DNA of 32,000 nt. It comes from Halogeometricum borinquense DSM 11551 (GTDB lineage Archaea > Halobacteriota > Halobacteria > Halobacteriales > Haloferacaceae). Under the pieces are notes generated by a model. It was not told the origin of the DNA. It saw only the letters and a program-made list of their open reading frames with translations, and did not search any database. Numbering within the stretch: the first letter of the stretch is position 1; each line of letters begins with the position of its first letter. Shown here piece after piece: positions 7,234 to 26,410 of the stretch. A program made the translations under genes and the position numbers. Location of the stretch: the NCBI RefSeq assembly GCF_000172995.2, contig NC_014729.1, positions 2,460,001 to 2,492,000 of the forward strand, read 5' to 3'.

Positions 7234-8658
7234 CTACTTCGAGAAGCGGTCCGCCTCGGCAACTGCGTCGGGCGCGTAGACGACGCCAGCGCCGATGTCG
7301 GGGCTACTTTTTCCTTTGCTGAAGCGGGCAGTTCGCTCGATAACGTTCTGAACCTGCTTGGCCGTCAGGTCGGGTGCAACTTCGCGGACGAGGGCGACGA
7401 GTCCGGCCACCTGCGGCGCGGCCATCGACGTCCCAGCGTACCACGCGTACTGCGACCCGTCGTTCAGATCCGCGGGCACCGACGAGTAGACGAGGTTCAG
7501 CGGGTACGGCCACTCGGTATCCGGTGCTAGCGTCTTCTCCACTGTCTCGTAGCCGCCCCCGGGTGCGCCGACATCGACATCGCTGGTGCCGTCGTTCGAG
7601 TAAAACGCTCGTTCGTTACCCGGCCCGGTCGCCGTGATACTCATCGCGCCGGGGACGCTGTTCGGGAGCGTGTAGTAGCCACCCTGTTGGAGGTTCGAAG
7701 AAGCGTTACCTGCACTTGCAGTCACGACGGTGCCGCGTTTGACCGCGTTCTGGATGACAGTCTGGTAGGCGACGTGTTCGCCCGACTTGTGCGCTGAGCC
7801 TTTGATGACGCCGCCGCCGAGGCTCATGTTCGCCGCGTCGGCGTTCGTCTCAGGCGCGTACTCGATTGCACTCAAGATGTCGAAGTCCGTCGTCGCCAGC
7901 GTCGTGACCGTGACGTGCTCTTCTGCCTCGCCGTCGCCGTCTTTGTCCCACGGGAAGTTCTCGACTTTCTTCCAGTAGAACACGCGAAGCGGGACGGCCT
8001 CGGCGTCGGGTGCCATCCCGGCAATGCCAGTCGTACCGGTGTTGTTCCCGGTGGAGATGCCCGCACAGTGGGTTCCGTGCGAATCCACGTCGTCGGCCGC
8101 CGCTTGCGTGCGCAGTTTCGGTGCGCCGAGGTACGTGTACGACTCGATTTCCTCACTTTCGGGCGGGAGTCGCGCCTGAATCGTCGTATCGCCAGCGACG
8201 GTGGGAGTCCCGGTCGGACTCGATATCCCGTCGGCACGGAACAGTTTGCCGTCCGCTGTCGCGGTGGTCAGGTCAGGATGATCCGTCTCGATTCCCGTGT
8301 CGATGATAGCGACGCGTCGGCCGGACCCCGTTGCTGTGTCGTGCGCCTGAAACGCACCCGTGGTGTCGTCGTGTTTGTCCCACTGCGTTTCGGCGTACTC
8401 GTCGTCCCGCGAACCCTCGGAACTCGTTGCCTGCTTTGCCGGACCGAGCAGTCGATACACCTCGTTCGAGTCCGCGGACTTCACGCCGCTGACGCGTTGG
8501 ATAGCCGACTTCGATCCGCCGATAACGAGGTGGACGGAGTCGTCCCCGATGGACTTCACTACCTCGAATCCCTCGCGTTCGAGTCGCTTCCGAACACCCT
8601 TGCCAGAAGCGGTTACGATGTACTGGTTCCGGCCGTCTTCGGCGCTTGCTGTCCCCAT
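7234..8658 (-). CDS. subtilisin-like serine protease (peptidase S8, halolysin-like); the true N-terminus probably extends to about 8724
   Basis: 474 aa from the first ATG. The catalytic triad contexts are VAIIDTGIETDHPDL (Asp), DSHGTHCAGI (His) and GTSMAAPQVAG (Ser). An I9-like propeptide sits at the N-terminus. An in-frame Tat signal lies upstream of the ATG (see findings). Confidence 0.9.
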   Translation of the reverse strand: MGTASAEDGRNQYIVTASGKGVRKRLEREGFEVVKSIGDDSVHLVIGGSKSAIQRVSGVKSADSNEVYRLLGPAKQATSSEGSRDDEYAETQWDKHDDTTGAFQAHDTATGSGRRVAIIDTGIETDHPDLTTATADGKLFRADGISSPTGTPTVAGDTTIQARLPPESEEIESYTYLGAPKLRTQAAADDVDSHGTHCAGISTGNNTGTTGIAGMAPDAEAVPLRVFYWKKVENFPWDKDGDGEAEEHVTVTTLATTDFDILSAIEYAPETNADAANMSLGGGVIKGSAHKSGEHVAYQTVIQNAVKRGTVVTASAGNASSNLQQGGYYTLPNSVPGAMSITATGPGNERAFYSNDGTSDVDVGAPGGGYETVEKTLAPDTEWPYPLNLVYSSVPADLNDGSQYAWYAGTSMAAPQVAGLVALVREVAPDLTAKQVQNVIERTARFSKGKSSPDIGAGVVYAPDAVAEADRFSK

Positions 8659-8724
8659 CGCACCGAGTGCGACCGTACTTCCGACAACACCTTTGAGAAG
8701 TGTCCGTCTGCTAAGTGATTGTAT

Positions 8725-9068
8725 GACAGAAAACCTGTGGGTAGAGCGACGAGTAAAAGGTTCGTTTAATTTTCCTGATGTTTACTTACCTATCAGACGA
8801 CTAATAAACGAGACAACGATTAGACGCTATTCGGCCAGACCCAAGTAATCAAAATTGATAACTATCCCATTATCTAGACTGGATTACTAACTATACATAT
8901 TTCTCTTCCGACCCAATCAGCGCGTAGAATCCATTCTGAGCCACTATTGTGCTGATTATCGATCTCGGCCGGGTCCAACTATTAGAATTCGCGGATTCTC
9001 AAATATTAAATACAGGAACCAAGCAACGAAGTTGCAATGTCGTGTGACGTGTTCGTCGGTGACGGACG
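8725..9068. promoter_or_regulatory. AT-rich divergent intergenic region between the S8 protease and the pilus-like operon
   Basis: About 340 bp that is visibly much more AT-rich than the rest of the window, for example aaaattgataactatcccattatctagactggattactaactatacatatttctc and caaatattaaatacagg. It contains several TATA-like elements and no convincing ORF. Confidence 0.5.
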
Positions 9069-11354
9069 ATGAGCGGCCGACCCGCGGCCGAGAGCGGTGG
9101 GACGGCGAGAACGAGCGCGGCCGAGGTGCCACCCCCGCTCCCACCGGACGACGGCGACGCGTGGTATGCCCCGGACGTTCGCGCACAGTACGAAGTTGTC
9201 CCCGGCGTCGTCGCCACCATCCGTGACGACGCCCACGGCGTCGGCTTCCGATACGAAGTTCACGAACCGGGGTTGGGCGCACGGGAGGAGGCGGCTCTCG
9301 CCCGCGTCCGAGACCATTTCTCCGTCGTGAACCGCCGTCGGCCGCTGACCCGCGAGGGGACCGCAGAACGCGCCGCTGGCGGTGTGCCACCGAAATACCG
9401 CCGCGTGTTCGACCGTCTCCTCGACGTGTCGCCAGCTGCTCAGCGACGCATCGAGTACTACGCGCTCTGCGAGTTGCGACTCCTCGGCGAGGTCACGCCG
9501 TTGGCGCTGGACGACCGCATCGACGTGGTTGACGTGGGGCGGGACGACGAAGACGGAACACTCGTCGTCCACACCGAGAACTACGCCCCCGCGACGACAG
9601 CCTATCGAACGGACGCCGAGTTCGCAGACCGAGTTGCTGGCGAGCGATTGCGCCACTACACGGTCCCGTTCTGCGGATTCGACGTGGACGTGGTTCTCCA
9701 TCGGGACCACCTCCTCGGCGACGACCGGTTCACCACGAAATACGCCGTACTCGAACCCGACCTCCTTCCGGGCGACGACGAACTCATCGCCGAGTGCAAA
9801 GAGCGCATCTGGGAAGCGAACGCCGGAGAGGTCGTCGAAGACCGACGCGAGTTCGTCCGTGAACGCGCCCGGCAGTTCCTCTCGCGCCGTTTGACGGCTA
9901 GAAACACCCGCGCGTGGCTCGAAGCCACCGAGTTCCGCGTGCGGACTGCTCTCGCCGAGTACGGGCTTGCGCTGCCGCCCGTAGACCGTCGGTTCGCCGA
10001 GGACCGTCTGGACGACCTCGTGTACTACGTCCTCCGCGACTACGTCGGCGAGGGTGTCCTCACCGTTCCCATCCGCGACCCAAATCTCGAAGACATCGAA
10101 GCCAACCGTGTCGGCGAACGCGTGAAGGTCATTCCGCGCGCCGGTATCGCCGACGATTCGACCGTCGGCGGCGGCCGCGTTCCCACGAACCTCGCGTTCG
10201 AAGACGAGACGAGTTTCGTCAACGTCGTCACCCAGTTGGCGGCCGCCGACGGCGTCGAGTTGAACGCGTCGCGTCCGTCGGCGAAGGTGAATCTCCGACC
10301 CGAAGGGATCGAGGAGACGATTCGGTGTGCCGTCGCTCTCCCGGTCATCTCCGAAGGCGGTCCGCACGTTTCCATCCGCAAGCAGTCTGCGGACCCGATG
10401 ACACCGGTAGACCTCGTCCACCTCGACGCCCTGCCGATCGAGTTGGTCGCCCTCCTGTGGATGCTGTACGAACACCACCGCGTCGTCCTCTTCTCCGGTC
10501 CGACGGGCGTCGGGAAGACGACGCTGATGAACGCGCACATGCCGTTCATTCCGTACGACCACCGCCCGGTGAGTATCGACGAAGGGTCCCGCGAGGTACG
10601 CCTCCCGCACGAAACGGGCATTTCACTGACGACGCGCGATCACGAATCCGAGTTCAAACGCGTCTCGATGGCCGACCTGATGACCGAGGCCAACTATCTG
10701 AATCCCGACGTCGAGGTGATCGCCGAGGTGAACACGCCCGCCTCGTTCGAGACGTTCGCCGAAGTCTTGAACACAGGGCACGGCGTCATCGGGACGACGC
10801 ACGCCGAAGACATCGAAACGCTGGTCAACCGCGTCGTCGAGCAGGGACTACCTACCTATCTGCTCCGCGAGTTGGATCTCGTGGTGTTCCCGCACCGCGT
10901 CGATGGCGAACGCTACGTCGGTGAAGTCGTCGAACTCGTTGACGAATCGGGCTACGACGCACTGCCCCCGACGGCACGGAAGGGAACGGTCGAAAAGGGC
11001 GGACAGACGCTCTACTGGAACACTGTGCTGTGGCGGGAGACCGACGGGTCGTTCTCGCTGGCGCACGACCACCCGCGACTCGGAGACGACCATCAGCGAC
11101 TCTCCCACCGCGTCTTCCACCGTATCGCCGCGGCCACGGACAGGGAAGTCGATGCAGTCGAAGCCGAGTTCCTCCGGAAGCGCGGCTACGTCGAGTATCT
11201 CGTCCGCGAAGACGTCTCCGAGTTCGACCGCGTGTTCGGGTTCCTCTCTGACCTCCGGACCGACGAGGCGGCGACGGTCGAACGCGTCCGGCGTCAGATG
11301 GCCGAATCAGCGGATGAGACGGAAGACGAAACGGAGGGCGAAACCGATGCGTGA
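9069..11354 (+). CDS. pilB: type II/IV secretion system ATPase, archaeal PilB/FlaI-like
   Basis: 761 aa. It has Walker A (FSGPTGVGKTTLMNA), a Walker B region (NPDVEVIAEVNT) and a His box (GHGVIGTTHAED). The long N-terminal domain is typical of haloarchaeal PilB paralogues. Confidence 0.9.
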   Translation: MSGRPAAESGGTARTSAAEVPPPLPPDDGDAWYAPDVRAQYEVVPGVVATIRDDAHGVGFRYEVHEPGLGAREEAALARVRDHFSVVNRRRPLTREGTAERAAGGVPPKYRRVFDRLLDVSPAAQRRIEYYALCELRLLGEVTPLALDDRIDVVDVGRDDEDGTLVVHTENYAPATTAYRTDAEFADRVAGERLRHYTVPFCGFDVDVVLHRDHLLGDDRFTTKYAVLEPDLLPGDDELIAECKERIWEANAGEVVEDRREFVRERARQFLSRRLTARNTRAWLEATEFRVRTALAEYGLALPPVDRRFAEDRLDDLVYYVLRDYVGEGVLTVPIRDPNLEDIEANRVGERVKVIPRAGIADDSTVGGGRVPTNLAFEDETSFVNVVTQLAAADGVELNASRPSAKVNLRPEGIEETIRCAVALPVISEGGPHVSIRKQSADPMTPVDLVHLDALPIELVALLWMLYEHHRVVLFSGPTGVGKTTLMNAHMPFIPYDHRPVSIDEGSREVRLPHETGISLTTRDHESEFKRVSMADLMTEANYLNPDVEVIAEVNTPASFETFAEVLNTGHGVIGTTHAEDIETLVNRVVEQGLPTYLLRELDLVVFPHRVDGERYVGEVVELVDESGYDALPPTARKGTVEKGGQTLYWNTVLWRETDGSFSLAHDHPRLGDDHQRLSHRVFHRIAAATDREVDAVEAEFLRKRGYVEYLVREDVSEFDRVFGFLSDLRTDEAATVERVRRQMAESADETEDETEGETDA

Positions 11355-11441
11355 GAGACGTTCAAGCGAGCGAACACGGCGTCACGCACCGACCCTACGC
11401 CGACGATCACGGCCGTTCGCCGTCGAACGTGAGGTGAAACA

Positions 11442-13352
11442 GTGACAGACACAGTCTCCCGGTCGGTAGCCGCGCGAGACGACTCTATTTCGGTTCTCGA
11501 CCGCGTCCTGTACGCGCTGTTTGCCCGCCACGCGGACGCCTCACGGCACGAACGGGACCGGCGAGCGTACCGCGGCACCGACCTCCGAATCGGGTTCGAT
11601 CTGTTTCTCGCACGGGTCTACGGTGCCTCGTGGGCCGCGATGCTGCTCGTTGCTGTCCCGATTCCGTTCCTGTTTCTCGCGCTTCCCACATCGACACTGG
11701 ACGGATGGGTCGCGTTCGCGGAGTCAGTCGTCCCGTTCGCCGGTCGCCTCCCGATTCCGCGCATTCCTCGACTCTTCCTCGGAATCGTCGCCGCTGCCGC
11801 GGTCGGTGGCGCGGTAAAACGGAGCGTCGTCGCCCTCGGCGGTCGGTATCTCGGCTGGATCGCCGCCGCGCGCCGGGCGAACATCGACCGGATGCTGCCG
11901 GGCGCCGTCCGCTATCTCCACGTTCTCGCCTCGGGGAGCGACGGCCGCCGAACGATGCTCCGGCGCGTCGCCGACACCGACGCGTACGGCGAGACGGCCG
12001 TCTCGCTTCGGAAGGCGCTCAACACCGCGGCGATGACCGGGAACATCAACGAAGGGCTCCGCCGCGTCGCCCGCGATACGCCCGCGGAGAACACGCTCGC
12101 ACCGTTCCTGTTGAAGTTCAGAGAACACGCCGACCAAGGCTCTGACGCCCTGCGAAACTACCTTCGGATGGAGAGTCGAATGCTCGGACACCAACAGGAC
12201 CGCGCGAGACGCCGTGCTGAGGGTTTTCTCGAACTTCTCGCGGAGATATTCATCGTCCTGCTCGTCCTGCCCGCCTTGCTGGTCATCATCCTGACCGTAA
12301 TGAGCGTCATCGCGCCCGGCCTGTCTACGACGGTCCCAACGCCCGTCGGAACGACGACGCTCCGCGGCGTCATCGTCTACGGAAGCGGTGCGTTCATCAT
12401 CGCTGTCGGTCTCGGCGCGGCATCGCTCGTGGCAACGATTCGTCCGCCAGACCAGACGGTGACGTACGCGCGCCCCGAGACGACGGTCGGGATGCTCGCC
12501 ACGGCGACGACCAACCCAGCGAGTGCGACGCTCGCGTTCGTGCCACTCGGTGTCGTTGCTTCGCTGGTCGCGGCGGCCGCGAAGTCGAATATCGTCGATG
12601 TCGTCCTCGCTGGCTACGTCGTCTATGCCATCCCCGTTGGCGTCGTCGCCGTCCGACGTGCCCGCCTTGACGGCGCGAAGGACCGCGAACTGAAAGATTT
12701 CGTTCACGCTATTTCCGGGCACGTCAGCCTCGGTCGCCCGTTTCCCGAAGCGGTCGAACACGTCGCTCGTGAGGTCGAGTTAGGTCCGCTTTCCGACGAC
12801 GTGGCGGATCTGGCGCTCAACCTCCGTCTCACGTCGCCGAACACGGGCACGGACGAGGACCTCCGAACCGCCGCGTTGGACCGGTTCGTCGAGCGCGTCG
12901 GGACGCCGATGGCCGAACAGACAATCGGACTCGTCATCGGCGCACTCGACGCCGGAAGCGACACCGGAACGGTGTTCGAGACGCTCCAATCCGAGGTTGG
13001 CCGCCTCTACCACGAGAAACGAGCGCTCCGCTCCGGGATGTTGGTCTACGTCGCTGTCGGATGGACCACCGCGCTGCTCGTCGTCGGAATCACGGTTGCC
13101 ACGGGCGCGCACGTCTTCGATGGATTCGCGCAGTTATCGTCGATGTCGGATCTCTCCGGCGTCGCCATCGATCCGCGCGCTGTGGACCTCGAACGCGACC
13201 GGTACCGAATCTACGTGACGACGCAGGCGACGATGCTCGCGTCAGGGTGGTTCGCCGGTGTCGCCAGTAGAGGCCGCTACGAGGCGCTACTCCACTCGGG
13301 TGCGCTGGTTGCCGTCTGCTACGTCGTCTTCGCGGGGGCCGGACTGATATGA
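11442..13352 (+). CDS. pilC: type II secretion system F-family polytopic membrane protein (PilC/TadC/FlaJ-like)
   Basis: 636 aa with a GTG start, preceded by the Shine-Dalgarno-like GAGGTGA 5 nt upstream. It shows two repeats of cytoplasmic helical domain plus TM bundle, and sits directly after the ATPase. Confidence 0.85.
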   Translation: MTDTVSRSVAARDDSISVLDRVLYALFARHADASRHERDRRAYRGTDLRIGFDLFLARVYGASWAAMLLVAVPIPFLFLALPTSTLDGWVAFAESVVPFAGRLPIPRIPRLFLGIVAAAAVGGAVKRSVVALGGRYLGWIAAARRANIDRMLPGAVRYLHVLASGSDGRRTMLRRVADTDAYGETAVSLRKALNTAAMTGNINEGLRRVARDTPAENTLAPFLLKFREHADQGSDALRNYLRMESRMLGHQQDRARRRAEGFLELLAEIFIVLLVLPALLVIILTVMSVIAPGLSTTVPTPVGTTTLRGVIVYGSGAFIIAVGLGAASLVATIRPPDQTVTYARPETTVGMLATATTNPASATLAFVPLGVVASLVAAAAKSNIVDVVLAGYVVYAIPVGVVAVRRARLDGAKDRELKDFVHAISGHVSLGRPFPEAVEHVAREVELGPLSDDVADLALNLRLTSPNTGTDEDLRTAALDRFVERVGTPMAEQTIGLVIGALDAGSDTGTVFETLQSEVGRLYHEKRALRSGMLVYVAVGWTTALLVVGITVATGAHVFDGFAQLSSMSDLSGVAIDPRAVDLERDRYRIYVTTQATMLASGWFAGVASRGRYEALLHSGALVAVCYVVFAGAGLI

Positions 13353-14101
13353 GCCGGAACCAGCACAGCGCGACCGGAACTCGACGTGACCGCGCCCAAT
13401 CCGCTATCGTCGGTGTGGCTCTCCTGCTCGGCCTCACCGTCGTCGGCATCGGCATCCTGACCGCCGCCGCGGGGACGGTCGTCCAAGAGGGTGCATCGAC
13501 CGCCGCGACAACCCGCGTCGCTGGTGGACTGGACGACGCACTCGACACCGGCACGGCGGCGGAGACGGAGGCAACTATCCGTCTTTCAGGTGGGACGATG
13601 CGCGTCACGAACCGAACTGTCCGCGTCCTGAACGACTCCGGCGTCGCGTGGTCCGGGCACACTGGAGCGATTGTGTACGAATCCGGCAACAAGCCCGTCT
13701 CAGCCGTCGCGGGGGCTGTCGCGGTCGGTAACGGAGACCGTAGCCGACTGGACGCACCGCCGAGTATTGCGCCCGCGAACGGGACGCTGTACGTCGGCGT
13801 TCCAGTCCTGAACGCCTCCGGAACCGACGCCGTCTCCGCCCGCGAGACGACAGTTCCGGTGACGCTTCGGACCACGCCGACGCACGAGCGACGACTCCTC
13901 TCTGCAAACCGCTACCGTGTGGCCGTCGAAACGGCGGCACCCGGTGCGTGGGAACGCCACTTCCGCGACCAAGGGGCGACCACTTCGCGGCGTGATTTCG
14001 ACGCCGATGGAACGCCGAGCGTCGTCGCCGACTTCCCGGGACGGCGAACACTCCACCTCGTCGTTCACGACCTGCGACTCCGGATGGAGGTGGGCGCGTG
14101 A
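13349..14101 (+). CDS. pilin-like protein with class III (prepilin) signal peptide
   Basis: 250 aa, with an ATGA overlap with pilC. The N-terminus MSRNQHSATGTRRDRAQSAIVGVALLLGLTVVGIGILTAAAG has a basic n-region, a DRA|QS cleavage-type motif and a hydrophobic helix. Confidence 0.75.
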   Translation: MSRNQHSATGTRRDRAQSAIVGVALLLGLTVVGIGILTAAAGTVVQEGASTAATTRVAGGLDDALDTGTAAETEATIRLSGGTMRVTNRTVRVLNDSGVAWSGHTGAIVYESGNKPVSAVAGAVAVGNGDRSRLDAPPSIAPANGTLYVGVPVLNASGTDAVSARETTVPVTLRTTPTHERRLLSANRYRVAVETAAPGAWERHFRDQGATTSRRDFDADGTPSVVADFPGRRTLHLVVHDLRLRMEVGA

Positions 14102-14661
14102 GCGTTCGACGGAGATGGTGCGGTCAGCGCGACGGACGCACCCCAAAAGGCCGCACGGATCGCGCGCTCTCTCCGGTCGTCGGGAAAGCGCTCGAACTCG
14201 GCATCGTCGTGCTGTTTATCGCCCTCGTAACGACGACGTTCTACGGCGACGTGATCCCCGGCTACCGAACGACGGCCGCCGCCGAGGTGGCCGAGCGCAC
14301 AGTCGTCGATGCCGCAGCGTCAGTCGAGGATGCGGTGCCCGAGCGAACGCATCGCATCGACCGCCGCGTCGCCGTCTCGCTTCCGGCGACAATTCGCGGC
14401 GACCCGTATCGTCTCCGTGCGACTTCGCCGGCAAACGAGAGTACGACTGCGTTAGTTCTCGAACATCCAGACGAAGGCGTCGGTGGGCGAGTAACGCTCT
14501 CGTTCCCGGTGCGCGAGGTGGCGGTGTCGGGGACGTGGCAAAGTACGAGCGAATCGTGGGCCGTCGTCAGCAACGATGGGGGTCGTATCGTGGTGACACT
14601 GGAGAACGGACGGAACGCCGCTTCTGGCGTCGTGAATGCCGTCGCGGGAGGTGCGCCGTGA
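14098..14661 (+). CDS. pilin-like protein with class III signal peptide
   Basis: 187 aa, with a GTGA overlap with the previous gene. The N-terminus reads ...GRTDRALSPVVGKALELGIVVLFIALVTTTFYG. Confidence 0.75.
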   Translation: MSVRRRWCGQRDGRTPKGRTDRALSPVVGKALELGIVVLFIALVTTTFYGDVIPGYRTTAAAEVAERTVVDAAASVEDAVPERTHRIDRRVAVSLPATIRGDPYRLRATSPANESTTALVLEHPDEGVGGRVTLSFPVREVAVSGTWQSTSESWAVVSNDGGRIVVTLENGRNAASGVVNAVAGGAP

Positions 14662-15332
14662 CGACCGAACGCGGGCAGGCAAACCTCATCGGACTCGCCG
14701 CCGCGCTCGTCCTCCTCGCCACGGTAACGACGGGAAGCGTCGCCCTCGCCTCCATCGCACTCGCAGACGCTGACACCGACTCCGAGACGCGGCACGCCGC
14801 CGAAACGCTTGCAGACCGATTGGTCGCCGCCGACGCCGACCACACGAGACGGGCGAACGCAGTCAGCGAAAACGCGATTCGTGCGCTGAACACGACGGCG
14901 GTAGACCGACTCGCGCCCTCGGTACGCAACCGTTCGATTCGCATCCGATTGGGTGACGAAGTTCTTGTCGAACGCGGCGACCCCGAGAAAACGACGGTTC
15001 GTCGTCTCGTCCGAGTCGAACAGTACGAACGCCGAACGACGACGGTTGATCTCGTGACGCAGCGGAGCGTGTCGCTTCCGGACCGAACCGAGACGGTCGA
15101 ACTCGACATCTCGACCGACGGGACGACGACGCTCACGACGGTCCGCGCGAACGACCGCATCGTGCTTCGGGACCGGAGCGGTCTCTCCGGCACCTACGAG
15201 TTCAAGGTGGCGCGCGTCAATCCGCCGCAACTCGAGTTTACGACGGAAGACGGCGTGGACGGAACCGTCACCGTGACGTGGACGGAAACAACCGCGACGG
15301 TCGAACCGCTGGAGGTGACCGTCGGTGCATAG
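14658..15332 (+). CDS. pilin-like protein with class III signal peptide
   Basis: This is the C-terminal third of the 13917-15332 track ORF. GTG at 14658 overlaps the preceding stop (GTGA) and gives VTTERGQANLIGLAAALVLLATVTTGSVALA. The upstream part of the long ORF is an out-of-frame overlap of the two preceding genes. Confidence 0.7.
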   Translation: MTTERGQANLIGLAAALVLLATVTTGSVALASIALADADTDSETRHAAETLADRLVAADADHTRRANAVSENAIRALNTTAVDRLAPSVRNRSIRIRLGDEVLVERGDPEKTTVRRLVRVEQYERRTTTVDLVTQRSVSLPDRTETVELDISTDGTTTLTTVRANDRIVLRDRSGLSGTYEFKVARVNPPQLEFTTEDGVDGTVTVTWTETTATVEPLEVTVGA

Positions 15333-15732
15333 CGACCGGGCACAACTCGCCACGCCGTTGATCGAAGTGACGGTCGGAATCTTCCTCATTCTCGCCGTCG
15401 CGCTCGGATTCGCGCTCCTTCCCGTCGAGACCGAGGAGACTGCGACGCTCGACCGAACGGCGTCGGACGCGCTCTCGGTTCTCGCCGCCGAACCGCCGGA
15501 GGGAACGGGACCGAACCGGATTGCCGCTGCCTGTCGGTCGGAATCGGCGTTCGAGACCGAAGCGGACGAACTGGATAGCCGACTGCGTGCGATACTCCCC
15601 GACCCGCTCTCGTACCGATTGGCGACGCCGCAGGGTCACGTCGGACAACCTCGCCCGTCCGGCATCCCAGCGGGAACAGCATCGTTCACTACTGACGGCT
15701 GTACGGTGACGCTTTGGGTGTGGTACGTATGA
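15325..15732 (+). CDS. pilin-like protein with class III signal peptide
   Basis: 135 aa with a GTG start that overlaps the previous gene by 8 nt. The N-terminus reads MHSDRAQLATPLIEVTVGIFLILAVALGFALL. Confidence 0.7.
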   Translation: MHSDRAQLATPLIEVTVGIFLILAVALGFALLPVETEETATLDRTASDALSVLAAEPPEGTGPNRIAAACRSESAFETEADELDSRLRAILPDPLSYRLATPQGHVGQPRPSGIPAGTASFTTDGCTVTLWVWYV

Positions 15733-16244
15733 CCCGCGACAGGGGGCAGGTGGTCCTCCTCGCGGCCGTCGTCGTCGCCGTCGCGCTCGTTCCGATGGCC
15801 CTCGCGTACGCGCAACTGGGATACGACACCGGGGGCGACGAACCCGCCGCTGGACCCGGAATCGACGGCGCGAGACGGGCGCTTTCGTCAGCATTCACCG
15901 GCGCGGCCGTTCAGACGGATGGCGCATACCACTGGAGCAACCGGGAGGCGGCGGTTTCGACGGTGCGAGACGACATGGCCGACGACGTGACTCGCGTCGA
16001 GAACGCAGCGGCCGCCACAGACCGCTCGCTCGTCGTCTCGTACAACGATTCGGAGGCGACGGGATGGGCAGTACGGAACTGCCCTGATGGGCGCGGGCGG
16101 GAGTTCGGTCCGTGCGAAGTCGAAGACGGTATCGTGATTCAACAGCGTGCCAACGAAACCGCAGTCGTCGCCGCGGCGCTCGACCTCGACATCGTCGCAC
16201 CCGACGAGCGAACGAACGCGACGGTGGTCGTGCGGGCGGTGTGA
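15729..16244 (+). CDS. pilin-like protein with class III signal peptide
   Basis: ATG at 15729 overlaps the preceding stop (ATGA) and gives MTRDRGQVVLLAAVVVAVALVPMALAYA. The track start at 15714 is less likely. Confidence 0.7.
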   Translation: MTRDRGQVVLLAAVVVAVALVPMALAYAQLGYDTGGDEPAAGPGIDGARRALSSAFTGAAVQTDGAYHWSNREAAVSTVRDDMADDVTRVENAAAATDRSLVVSYNDSEATGWAVRNCPDGRGREFGPCEVEDGIVIQQRANETAVVAAALDLDIVAPDERTNATVVVRAV

Positions 16245-16380: not shown

Positions 16381-17502
16381 TCACCAGTTCGACCGCCCCC
16401 ACCCGATGAGGTTCGAGAGCGACCCGCCTCCGGCAGAGACGTTGTGCTTTGCAATCTTCCACGGGAAGTGATACTCTTCTTCGCCGCCGGAGTGGGTCCC
16501 GACGACGTACGGCGAACCGGACCACCATCCGAACACCGGTCCGCCGGAGCCACCGCCGCTTGAGTCTGCTCGGTACTCCAACTCGACGCCCGCGCCGTCG
16601 TTGTCGTCGTCGATGATCGGATACCATGTCACTCTGCTCGGTCGCTGACCGCTCGCAACCGCGCCCGGATATCCGACTTTGGTCCAGTAGTCGCCGTCCT
16701 CCCAGCTATCGTGGTAGGTCTTGTACCCGAAGTATCCGAACGTATCACCGAGCGGCGTGTAGAGCTTCAAAACGGCCATATCATCGCCTTGGCTGTGATT
16801 CTCGTAGCCGCGGTACGCTTGGACGTACGAATTGACTGACCCGCCGAGCCGTGATGAACCGTCCCAGTACGCGGGGACGAACCGCATCATCCACGGATCC
16901 GAATCCCACGGAACAACGTGGCTTGCGGTGAGGACGACGTTCCGACCGACGAGAGCCCCGGTTCCCGACCACGCGGGTCCGCCGGACGGATCGGTCCAGG
17001 CGTATATCTTCCCGGTACATCGCCACGGGTAGCCGTCCGGAACGAACACTTGGCGGTCGTCCGAACCGAGGACGTAGTGTGGGGTGACCGACTCCCCGTC
17101 TCGACGCCTGAGCGGCTCATGTGACCGTGGGGTCCCGATTTTCGGGTGGTATCTTATCCCGTCGTCGTCCGGGAGATACGGATCGAATTCGTGTTCGAAC
17201 CCCGCCTTACGGTTGGGTGGATCCACGGCCTCACCCGCTTGACCGACCCGTCCGACCGCCATGTCCTCGTCGAGATCAACACGGGCTACGTTCTCGAACT
17301 CCGTCTCTCGGATAGACAGTTCTTCGACTCTCTCGGTGGCAAACTCCGACCGCTGCTGCTCTGTGAGCGAACTCAGATACAGTGTCGGCTCCCGCAGCGT
17401 AGCGAGCGCTTCGGGGTCGATCTGCTCTGGTTCGTTGTCTAACTCGACGAACTCGTCCGCGAGCATCGGTCGGTCCGATTCGGGTATGTTATTTGCCATC
17501 AT
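16381..17502 (-). CDS. trypsin-like serine protease (peptidase S1 family) with a long acidic N-terminal region and no signal peptide
   Basis: 373 aa. The triad contexts are VVLTASHVV (His), GDDMAVLKL (Asp) and SSGGGSGGPVF (Ser, GDSGGP-like). The first ~150 aa are acidic and contain no hydrophobic or RR signal. Confidence 0.85.
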   Translation of the reverse strand: MMANNIPESDRPMLADEFVELDNEPEQIDPEALATLREPTLYLSSLTEQQRSEFATERVEELSIRETEFENVARVDLDEDMAVGRVGQAGEAVDPPNRKAGFEHEFDPYLPDDDGIRYHPKIGTPRSHEPLRRRDGESVTPHYVLGSDDRQVFVPDGYPWRCTGKIYAWTDPSGGPAWSGTGALVGRNVVLTASHVVPWDSDPWMMRFVPAYWDGSSRLGGSVNSYVQAYRGYENHSQGDDMAVLKLYTPLGDTFGYFGYKTYHDSWEDGDYWTKVGYPGAVASGQRPSRVTWYPIIDDDNDGAGVELEYRADSSGGGSGGPVFGWWSGSPYVVGTHSGGEEEYHFPWKIAKHNVSAGGGSLSNLIGWGRSNW

Positions 17503-25082: not shown

Positions 25083-25640
25083 TCATCTGTCCAATTGGTC
25101 AGTCAGACCCCACTCTTCGGCACGCGACTGCGCTTCCTGTCGTGCCTCGGCCTTGATGGCCTCGATTCGGTCGGCGTCCGCAAGGAACTCCTCGACCGAA
25201 CTCTGTTCGTCCGCCAACCGATGGTCGGGCGCGGCATCTCGGGTCCGCTCTGCGAGTTCCGGGTCGGCCGCAAGGCGGTCCGCCGGTCGCGCAGGCGGAA
25301 CGCGACACGTCTCGTCCCGATGAGCGACAGCCACGTCCTCAGGGTCGAGTTCGAACAGTTCGACGCGGTAAGGTCCCGCGGCGTCGAGCGCCGCGAGAGC
25401 GTCGGGACCGCCGCGGTCCGTCGCGGCGTCGTAGGCGAGAACCGGAACCCCCTCCTCGAACGTCAGGACAGTTGCGTCGTCGCCACCACCGAGGAGCGAC
25501 CCCTGTGGTTCGAAGACGACGTATCCGGTAAGTTCTCGGTCGAGCACCGCCGCGAGCGTTTTGTCAGCATCGCTCACGACGCGTGACTGAAGGAGATCAC
25601 CCTCGGGAATCCGAAACGGTGAGTCCGACTGCACGGTCAC
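25083..25640 (-). CDS. hypothetical acidic protein translationally coupled to the MinD/ParA ATPase
   Basis: 185 aa. The GTG start overlaps the MinD stop (GTGA at 25637-25640). It has an N-terminal globular domain of about 110 aa, an acidic linker and a C-terminal amphipathic helix (EEFLADADRIEAIKAEARQEAQSRAEEWG). Confidence 0.65.
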   Translation of the reverse strand: MTVQSDSPFRIPEGDLLQSRVVSDADKTLAAVLDRELTGYVVFEPQGSLLGGGDDATVLTFEEGVPVLAYDAATDRGGPDALAALDAAGPYRVELFELDPEDVAVAHRDETCRVPPARPADRLAADPELAERTRDAAPDHRLADEQSSVEEFLADADRIEAIKAEARQEAQSRAEEWGLTDQLDR

Positions 25641-26410
25641 ACCCGGTCCGGAAGCACGGCACTTCGGAAGCGGTCCGCGACGCCCGCCGCGTCACCGTCG
25701 CGCACGTCGAGATTTGCGGCCGCCTCGTAGAACGCGTCGGCCGCCGGATCCTCGGGTGCGTGGGCCAAAAGCGGTTCGCCCGCCCGTCGCGCGGCCCTGA
25801 CGGCGTCGCTCTCGGGGACCGACGCCAGCGTCGTCCCGCCGAAGTAGCGCGATGCCTGTTCTGCAATGTTCTCTGTGTCCTCGTCGGGCCGGACGCGGTT
25901 GAAGAGGACGCCGGCCGTTTCAGTGCCGTAGGAGCGAGCGTACTCCTGTACCTTCAGTCCGTCCGAGAGGGATGGAACGGTCGGTTGGAGGACCACCACG
26001 ACTCGGTCGGCGAGAACGACGGGGAGAACGGCGCTTTTCGATCCGAGCGCGGCGGGTGAGTCGAGGAGGAGAACGTCCGTGTCGGCGGCGAGTTCAGCGA
26101 CCACTTCGCGGAGTCGGGCGGGGTCGGCCGCCTCGAATGCGGCGAGACTCGTCCCGCAGGGGACGACAGACATCCCGAAACGGTCGTAAACGGCGTCTTC
26201 GACGCTCGCATCGTGCCCCTCGACTAAGAGGTCGTGGAGCGTCACGTCGGCGTCGTCCAAGCCGGTGTGAAACAGGAGGTTCGCCATCCCCGTGTCGGCG
26301 TCGATAACGGTCACGTCGTACGTCTCGGCGAGAGCCATTCCGAGCGCCAGCGTACTCGTTGTCTTACCCGTGCCACCCTTCCCGCTGGCGACGGCGAACG
26401 CTTCGACCAT
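25637..26410 (-). CDS. MinD/ParA-family P-loop ATPase
   Basis: 257 aa. It has the deviant Walker A (VASGKGGTGKTTSTLALG), then VIDADTGMANL, and a Walker B-like VLLLDSPAALG. Confidence 0.9.
   Translation of the reverse strand: MVEAFAVASGKGGTGKTTSTLALGMALAETYDVTVIDADTGMANLLFHTGLDDADVTLHDLLVEGHDASVEDAVYDRFGMSVVPCGTSLAAFEAADPARLREVVAELAADTDVLLLDSPAALGSKSAVLPVVLADRVVVVLQPTVPSLSDGLKVQEYARSYGTETAGVLFNRVRPDEDTENIAEQASRYFGGTTLASVPESDAVRAARRAGEPLLAHAPEDPAADAFYEAAANLDVRDGDAAGVADRFRSAVLPDRV

Follow-up and report, generated by a model that had tools for sequence, protein, structure and literature searches.

The closest described relative of the locus considered here is the pilB1 operon of Haloferax volcanii (HVO_0620-HVO_0614), in which, according to a supplementary table in the genome paper on Haloferax gibbonsii, pilB1 is HVO_0620, pilC1 is HVO_0619 and the associated genes are HVO_0618-0614. 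A 2016 census placed this system in a halobacteria-specific subclade, 4C, and proposed that its ATPase/TadC pair came from crenarchaea and its pilins from euryarchaeal ones (Makarova, Koonin and Albers 2016, PMC4858521). In Haloferax, both a transposon insertion (pilB1::tn) and deletion of pilB1-C1 lead to an intermediate adhesion defect; the deletion is rescued in trans by pilB1-C1 and also by pilB3-C3, and a pilB3-C3 deletion is not rescued by pilB1-C1 in trans (Legerme and Pohlschroder 2019, PMC6491452). Proteomics of H. volcanii detected PilB1 only in glucose minimal medium. A 2026 preprint (bioRxiv 10.64898/2026.04.22.720090) describes 4C as halospecific machinery and calls the role of the loci other than pilB3 unclear. 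Here we analyze a seven-gene type IV pilus-like operon at positions 9069-16244 of a 32-kb stretch of the Halogeometricum borinquense DSM 11551 genome (contig NC_014729.1, positions 2,460,001 to 2,492,000; hereafter the window). We hold with high confidence that this operon is the H. borinquense ortholog of the H. volcanii pilB1 operon, a haloarchaea-specific 4C system, and that it shares the general mode of action set out below. The system itself is already known from the 2016 census, the Pfam DUF families, the 2026 preprint and the Haloferax genetics. An earlier interpretation made from the letters alone (the sequence-only reading) had presented the operon as one of unknown function, a description that gives way to its orthology with the studied Haloferax operon. 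The accompanying statement that function is not established no longer applies to adhesion, which was shown for the Haloferax ortholog, but still applies to what each of the five pilin-like proteins does biochemically. That loci of this kind had been catalogued by comparative genomics was correctly stated, as subclade 4C attests (Makarova 2016).

Two further haloarchaeal systems provide points of comparison. The pil-2 locus of Halobacterium salinarum (OE1347R-OE1332R; Losensky et al. 2015) likewise consists of seven co-transcribed open reading frames (ORFs) spanning ~6.9 kb, is found in haloarchaea only and encodes PilB2, PilC2 and FlaFind-positive prepilins; it can be likened to 4C by this description, and was so placed by Makarova 2016. 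It differs in being defective: an in-frame stop interrupts pilC2 in each of the three strains compared, and strain NRC-1 has a disrupted pilB2. Only transcription has been shown for pil-2 (PMC4292770, PMC7002104), and the adhesion phenotype in Losensky 2015 belongs to the pilB1 gene of that organism, which is orthologous to the pilB3 type of Haloferax rather than to 4C. We made no use of the claim in section 12 of the 2016 census (PMC4858521) that the Hbt. salinarum 4C system functions in adhesion, as the gene deleted was pilB1 (PMC4292770, PMC7002104). The PilB3-C3/PilA1-6 pili of Haloferax (euryarchaeal clade 2) are alike in having an ATPase, a platform protein and pilins processed by PibD, and in serving adhesion. 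However, their pilins are encoded away from pilB3-C3 and have an identical Pilin_N H-domain, and their ATPase belongs to another clade according to the literature.

Seven plus-strand ORFs occupy positions 9069-16244, exactly where the sequence-only reading had placed them, in a region with a GC content of 66.1% compared to 62.7% for the window overall. The first gene, pilB (9069-11354), encodes a protein of 761 amino acids (aa) matching T2SSE (PF00437, E = 3.4e-18, residues 408-601), and pilC (11442-13352) encodes 636 aa matching T2SSF (PF00482) in two stretches (E = 9e-17). Behind them, also on the plus strand, lie the genes for pilin-like protein 1 (13349-14101, 250 aa; DUF7289, PF23960, E = 9.7e-66), protein 2 (14098-14661, 187 aa; DUF7266, PF23928, E = 4.1e-52), protein 3 (14658-15332, 224 aa; DUF7263, PF23924, E = 9e-78), protein 4 (15325-15732, 135 aa; DUF7262, PF23923, E = 2.9e-50) and protein 5 (15729-16244, 171 aa from its ATG; DUF7261, PF23922, E = 3.9e-58). 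Each of the five thus has a Pfam family of its own whose full profile is covered, with E-values of 3e-50 to 9e-78, and NCBIfam has no models for them. Searches with hidden Markov models had been suggested by the sequence-only reading, and the five Pfam families in this order were their outcome. Together with the ORFs and the signal motifs described below, they bear out its proposal of a PilB-like ATPase and a PilC-like protein followed by five prepilin-type proteins.

The genes are tightly packed from pilC onward, where successive junctions consist of ATGA, GTGA, GTGA, an 8-nucleotide (nt) overlap and ATGA. The chain of stop/start overlaps noticed earlier is therefore real, each overlap being of 4 or 8 nt. 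A gap of 87 nt separates pilB from pilC, which starts at a GTG with a Shine-Dalgarno-like GGTGA 6 nt 5' of it. The longest ORF of pilin-like protein 5 begins at a TTG at 15714 and would yield 176 aa, but we favor the ATG at 15729 because the resulting ATGA overlap is kept in 61 of 66 related loci.

The Haloferax locus carrying the PilB protein ADE04310.1 contains the same genes in the same order (T2SSE, T2SSF, DUF7289, DUF7266, DUF7263, DUF7262 and DUF7261). Protein identity to the window amounts to 75% for PilB over 94% of its length, to 71% for PilC in the same position, and to 35-46% for the pilin-like proteins, with which the Haloferax operon shares all five Pfam families. The ATGA overlap between pilC and the first pilin gene is common to both operons. 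Because paralogy with pilB2 (HVO_0748, which has another gene complement) needed to be excluded, we mapped the published hvo_0620/0619/0618 primers (PMC6491452) onto the retrieved Haloferax loci. The primers coincide exactly with gene boundaries: where the ATPase gene begins, where the platform gene ends, and at the ATGA with which the first pilin gene opens. The two operons differ at the pilB/pilC junction, which is a 4-nt overlap in Haloferax and the 87-nt spacer with a Shine-Dalgarno-like motif in the window. They also differ in their surroundings, with a HisKA_7TM sensor kinase gene upstream and a metallo-beta-lactamase-fold gene downstream in Haloferax, whereas the window has proteases. 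Finally, function has been studied in the Haloferax ortholog, while the window operon is known from its sequence.

Agreement with the catalogued system is equally close. Relative to subclade 4C, termed 'subsystem 4C' in the 2026 preprint (bioRxiv 10.64898/2026.04.22.720090), the gene set and order are the same and nothing substantive differs. The Haloarcula hispanica table in Makarova 2016 lists TadC (arCOG01810) followed by arCOG02911, 06296, 03933, 04680 and 04679, and the gene sizes in that table match those of the five window genes. Mapped by gene order and size against this table, DUF7289 corresponds to arCOG02911, DUF7266 to arCOG06296, DUF7263 to arCOG03933, DUF7262 to arCOG04680 and DUF7261 to arCOG04679. 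The census regards arCOG02911 as the signature minor pilin of euryarchaeal type IV pili and predicts arCOG06296 to be the major pilin (Makarova 2016, PMC4858521). The absence of an obvious major pilin, as remarked upon by the sequence-only reading, is consequently arguable, given that this nomination falls on DUF7266 by order and size.

The pilB product is predicted to be a secretion/assembly ATPase of the T2SSE/VirB11 superfamily, orthologous to PilB1 (HVO_0620). Its Walker A motif, GPTGVGKTT, can be read in the translation, it shares 99% identity with a protein from Halogeometricum borinquense, and its nearest solved structures are A. fulgidus GspE (2OAP, 1.5e-31), FlaI and CpaF. Orthology to PilB1 makes it a probable member of clade 4 (TACK-type), where Makarova 2016 places that ATPase. 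The first ~300 residues of PilB (window 9069-10000) have no Pfam match, and the alignment to 2OAP begins at residue 309. This N-terminal part is nevertheless strongly conserved between genera, and from residue 20 on many alignment columns are invariant, which points to a putative system-specific domain of ~300 aa. The pilC product is, by its sequence relationships, a probable polytopic platform protein of the TadC/FlaJ family orthologous to HVO_0619. An archaellum was considered and rejected, as the NCBIfam models for FlaI and FlaJ scored 143 and 44 bits, respectively, against a cutoff of 550 bits for each, and the window ORFs include no archaellin or FlaF/G/H. A tblastn search of PLSDB plasmids with PilB (E ≤ 1e-30) returned no match and thus no sign of a plasmid-borne cassette.

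To compare loci across haloarchaea, we scanned one genome per GTDB species, which revealed 324 loci with a PilB relative, and fetched the best 80. Together with the window and three Haloferax places, these made up 84 sequences. All of the best 80 loci bear haloarchaeal record titles and every homolog with a named source is haloarchaeal, such that, among these best matches, the system appears to be restricted to Halobacteria. The seven genes are found in the same order in 66 of the 84 sequences, and the overlaps are conserved along with them. Within these 66 loci, pilC and gene 3 overlap by 4 nt in 58, gene 3 and gene 4 by 8 or 4 nt in 58, gene 4 and gene 5 by 4 nt in 49, gene 5 and gene 6 by 8 nt in 57, and gene 6 and gene 7 by 4 nt in 61. 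A 4-nt overlap of pilB and pilC was present in 45/66, and the 87-nt spacer in the window is a local peculiarity. The five subunit genes were strictly single-copy in the loci compared, and their neighbors were variable.

Some loci depart from the seven-gene arrangement. Five Halorubrum loci (L047, L063, L065, L073 and L083) have pilB and pilC with no pilin quintet within 10 kb, and pilB stands alone, with no pilC or pilins within 4-10 kb, in two Haloplanus loci (L022 and L040) and four metagenome-assembled genomes (L033, L034, L037 and L053). The PilB orthologs lacking a quintet are 65-75% identical to PilB of the window. These loci imply that the ATPase module and the quintet can be uncoupled. 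The Salinirarus marinus chromosome carries two seven-gene operons, within the stretches 18,964-41,099 (L025) and 2,850,852-2,872,987 (L026), which have the same PilB identity to the query and lie near both ends of the sequence record. The two copies reflect either recent duplication or a large repeat.

The N-terminus of each of the five pilin-like proteins is a brief polar leader that terminates in [D/E]-R-[G/A]. Next comes Q, replaced by L in the second protein, and then a run of ~20 hydrophobic residues. The predicted class III cleavage site separates RDRA from QSAIVGVALLLGL in protein 1 (DUF7289), TDRA from LSPVVGKALELGIVVLF in protein 2 (DUF7266), ERG from QANLIGLAAALVLL in protein 3 (DUF7263), DRA from QLATPLIEVTVGIFLIL in protein 4 (DUF7262) and DRG from QVVLLAAVVVAV in protein 5 (DUF7261). 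Across ~60 orthologous loci, R(-2), G/A/S(-1) and Q(+1) are conserved in every family, except that DUF7266 has V or L at +1, and the hydrophobic stretch behind the site is conserved in all five. Further conserved positions are K(+7) and E(+10) in DUF7266 and an acidic residue at +8 in DUF7262. Conservation of the putative class III motif in five families is far beyond chance. When all window ORFs were scanned for the motif, no other N-terminal class III signal came up. Pfam scans that took in the other sizeable ORFs found no prepilin peptidase (Peptidase_A24) in the window, and the earlier remark that such an enzyme is missing thus holds for the whole window.

Behind their signals the five proteins have little in common. 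Profile-profile comparison related only DUF7289 and DUF7266 to each other, and only over the N-terminal 75 residues, in agreement with the earlier description of five proteins of 135-250 aa with dissimilar globular parts. PilA-type (Pilin_N) adhesion pilins were rejected as an identity for the five, none of which reaches the Pfam gathering score; the best of them, the DUF7289 protein, matches Pilin_N (PF07790) weakly at 18.6 bits relative to a cutoff of 25.2 bits. AlphaFold2 modeled DUF7266 with a predicted local distance difference test score (pLDDT) of 82 as two helices (26-49 and 54-79) followed by a 7-strand beta domain, and DUF7263 with a pLDDT of 90.7 as an N-terminal helix (3-39), a second helix (42-55) and a beta-sandwich. 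In the models, both members show a pilin-like architecture, that is, an N-terminal helix and then a beta domain. When searched against the PDB, the DUF7266 profile matched only the N-terminal helices of haloarchaeal PilA structures (8GI2, 8FJ5 and 9MYG; E = 0.06-0.36). Foldseek comparison of the DUF7263 model to the PDB gave weak, generic beta-sandwich or jelly-roll matches only, the best being Ena3A (E = 2e-4, TMq 0.29). Since Foldseek matches were weak or insignificant, we drew no functional inference from the globular domains of DUF7263 and DUF7266.

The operon is preceded by a 410-nt intergenic region (8659..9068) with 43.9% GC, in which GC content taken over 100 nt falls to its minimum for the window (35% at 8801). 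This region is presumably the promoter and 5' region of the operon, shared divergently with the gene for an S8 protease, and the sequence-only reading had rightly singled it out as very AT-rich in comparison to the 62.7% GC of the window. A scan of it for archaeal TATA-like motifs gave one weak match only, on the minus strand, and we make no promoter call. Pfam identifies the divergent gene (7234-8658, minus strand) as an S8 protease (subtilase), and the gene convergent with the operon on its other side (16381-17502, minus strand) as a trypsin-like S1 protease. The S1 protease is indeed convergent and signal-less, as first described, but so is the S8 protease without an obvious signal: the longest ORF of neither has an obvious Sec or twin-arginine translocation (Tat) signal. 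The N-terminus of the S8 protease resembles a propeptide rather than a signal.

We considered whether the proteases could be parts of the system and rejected them: in 83 related loci, among them that of Halogeometricum limi, tblastn with the S8 and S1 proteins detected nothing homologous less than 10 kb from the operon. The remaining flanking genes of the window likewise lacked synteny in H. limi and the related loci. The comparison of synteny across Halobacteria, which the sequence-only reading had proposed, therefore has a divided outcome, with the order of the seven genes kept and the protease flanks not. Because the flanks are not conserved, the seven genes behave as a cassette, and their framing by two proteases, which had featured prominently in the earlier description, is incidental.

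Several neighbors recur across loci without being universal, namely a HisKA_7TM kinase, ABC-transporter ATPases, and a MinD-like ATPase with a small acidic partner. In the window, the MinD-like ATPase (TIGR01969, 191.8 bits, just below the cutoff) and its acidic partner of ~184 aa are located at 25089-26410 on the minus strand, 9.4 kb downstream of the operon and convergent with it. In 14 other loci, which represent at least six genera, the pair is found at a distance of 0.7-5 kb from the 4C operon, either upstream on the same strand (L005, L007-L010, L012 and L030) or downstream and convergent (L055, L064, L072, L075 and L080-L082). Chance linkage of a single-copy pair was estimated at less than 1% per genome, and the MinD-like pair may therefore be an accessory of the 4C system, with a putative role in positioning or regulation. 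The HisKA_7TM sensor histidine kinase gene is directly upstream of pilB1 in Haloferax (L001, 7998-9779), where it also has PAS domains, and directly downstream of the operon in Halobellus and a Haloquadratum metagenome-assembled genome (L005, L007-L010, L012, L018, L029, L030 and L077). It is absent beside the window operon. Its recurrence in differing positions suggests a possible regulatory link in Haloferacaceae. Lastly, Haladaptatus pallidirubidus (L041, 12249-16358, plus strand) and Halorussus aquaticus (L051, 12411-16499, plus strand) have a beta-1,3-glucanase-type gene pair between pilB and pilC on the same strand, with the operon otherwise intact. The pair encodes a GH16 protein (~320 aa) and a GH81C/fn3/CBM56 protein (~1000 aa), and the L041 copies have Tat-type signals.

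From these features we can propose how the system would operate. Machines of the type IV filament (TFF) superfamily combine an assembly ATPase with a polytopic platform protein and with subunits that bear class III signals, and the operon encodes all three. The seven genes would be transcribed as a single unit from the AT-rich upstream region, and the 4- and 8-nt overlaps would link PilC and the five pilin-like proteins at the level of translation, keeping them in roughly fixed proportions. The five precursors would insert in the membrane and be cleaved after R-[G/A/S] by a PibD encoded elsewhere, thereby exposing the hydrophobic N-terminal helix. PilB, acting on the PilC platform, would then extract the subunits and polymerize them into a thin surface filament. 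Such a filament would be expected to contribute to adhesion, a phenotype that was shown in the Haloferax ortholog only.

The division of labor among the five subunits is less certain than the overall scheme. Type IV filament systems follow a rule of one major plus about four minor pilins. Owing to this rule and to the census prediction for arCOG06296, we consider DUF7266 a candidate for the repeating shaft subunit and the other four proteins candidates for an initiation or tip complex, an assignment whose chances we place a little short of even. DUF7266 is a candidate also because its profile is the only one to match PilA N-terminal helices in the PDB.

A number of observations weigh against a self-made fiber with a DUF7266 shaft. 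The similarity of DUF7266 to PilA is weak and confined to ~30 N-terminal residues, and its globular domain has no significant Foldseek match in the PDB. No filament of a 4C system has been seen in any organism, and only pilBC3 forms visible pili in H. volcanii (2026 preprint). A shaft gene coupled behind the ATPase and platform genes, never tandemly duplicated among the loci compared and with no visible promoter of its own, would be unusual for an abundant major pilin. Genetics in Haloferax adds to the difficulty: cells without pilA1-6 do not adhere significantly during the first 24 hours, and losing pilB1-C1 as well as pilB3-C3 impairs adhesion no further than losing pilB3-C3 alone. This epistasis fits involvement in the PilA pathway at least as well as an independent fiber.

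Such a role would follow if the quintet were a priming or tip module only, with PilB/PilC and the five proteins starting filaments made of PilA-type (Pilin_N) pilins encoded elsewhere. We judge this possible although on balance unlikely. Consistent with it, the quintet is single-copy, fixed in order and bound by conserved translational overlaps in 66/84 sequences, and its five dissimilar globular domains are as would be expected of a hetero-oligomeric complex. The Haloferax epistasis fits as well, including the dependence of adhesion on pilA1-6, the double mutant resembling the pilB3C3 single mutant and the rescue by PilB3-C3, and several Halorubrum loci keep PilB-PilC with no quintet nearby. 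A further lead comes from Natrinema sp. J7, where an ATPase/platform pair, pilB2-pilC2, again stands beside five clustered genes for dissimilar pilins, pilA6-10. There, PilB2-C2 is needed for pili made of PilA supplied in trans, deletion of pilA6-10 lowers plaquing of a pilus-dependent virus ~100-fold, and none of pilA6-10 replaces PilA1-4 (Cell Rep 2025, PMC12426801). The Natrinema cluster serves as a lead only, however, and may be of the 4C type or of the clade-2 PilB4 type; no Natrinema or Halobacterium proteins are among the listed homologs of DUF7263 or DUF7266. Other evidence runs counter to a priming module. In Haloferax, pilB1-C1 in trans fails to rescue the pilB3-C3 deletion, and therefore PilB1-C1 alone does not assemble PilA1-6 pili in that organism. 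An internal major pilin is also favored by Makarova's model and by the N-terminal likeness of DUF7266 to PilA. An extension of the priming idea, which we hold to be more doubtful still, would make the quintet the archaeal counterpart of the bacterial minor-pilin initiation complex and a portable primer for PilA pilins of the cell or of proviruses, with the MinD-like pair perhaps positioning the machine.

Bacterial systems offer a different analogy, one that corresponds to the secretion complex entertained by the sequence-only reading. In the ComG pseudopilus and in the type II secretion system (T2SS; GspE-F-G-H-I-J-K), genes for an ATPase and a platform protein stand ahead of five prepilin-type genes, which encode one major and four minor (pseudo)pilins. 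The ATPase-platform-five layout of the 4C operon mirrors both gspE-F-G-H-I-J-K and comGA-GG, and it would accord with a short pseudopilus for secretion (T2SS-like) or DNA uptake (ComG-like), with the nearby hydrolases as possible cargo. Visible pili have not been attributed to the 4C system (2026 preprint), the window operon sits between two proteases without obvious signal peptides, and in two other genera GH16 and GH81 glucanase genes are inserted between pilB and pilC. Nevertheless, we find a pseudopilus improbable. The resemblance to ComG and the T2SS is one of layout: the ATPase and platform superfamilies are shared, but the two modeled families, DUF7266 and DUF7263, have no sequence or fold match there, and the window ORFs include no secretin, GspL/M, ComEA/ComEC-like protein, DNA channel or other secretion component. 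Haloarchaea have a single membrane and an S-layer, and no outer membrane for a piston of the T2SS type to cross. Neither protease is linked to the operon in 83 related loci, the glucanases occur in only 2 of 66 full operons and, in L041, come with Tat-type signals, and the sole known phenotype of an ortholog is reduced adhesion. More improbable again is that the operon is a silent or decaying remnant, as has been argued for Hbt. salinarum pil-2. That locus is defective, PilB1 is undetectable in most H. volcanii proteome data sets, and the cassette lacks a conserved gene context and behaves as one open to gain and loss, being absent, for example, from Hfx. gibbonsii LR2-5. Yet all seven window ORFs are intact and full-length relative to their orthologs, their overlaps, signal motifs and full-coverage Pfam domains are preserved, and the Haloferax ortholog has a phenotype.

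The preferred reading of the window operon thus remains that of a pilB1-type 4C system, and in this respect H. borinquense is one more genome for a catalogued and genetically probed system, which by itself opens no new question. The roles of the five pilin-like proteins are a gap already recognized in the literature rather than one discovered here. What the analysis adds is a comparative picture of the system as a self-contained cassette with conserved gene order and overlaps, single-copy subunits, variable neighbors and a recurrent link to a MinD-like pair. This picture sharpens the question of whether DUF7266 is a true shaft pilin or whether the whole quintet is a priming complex for PilA pilins.

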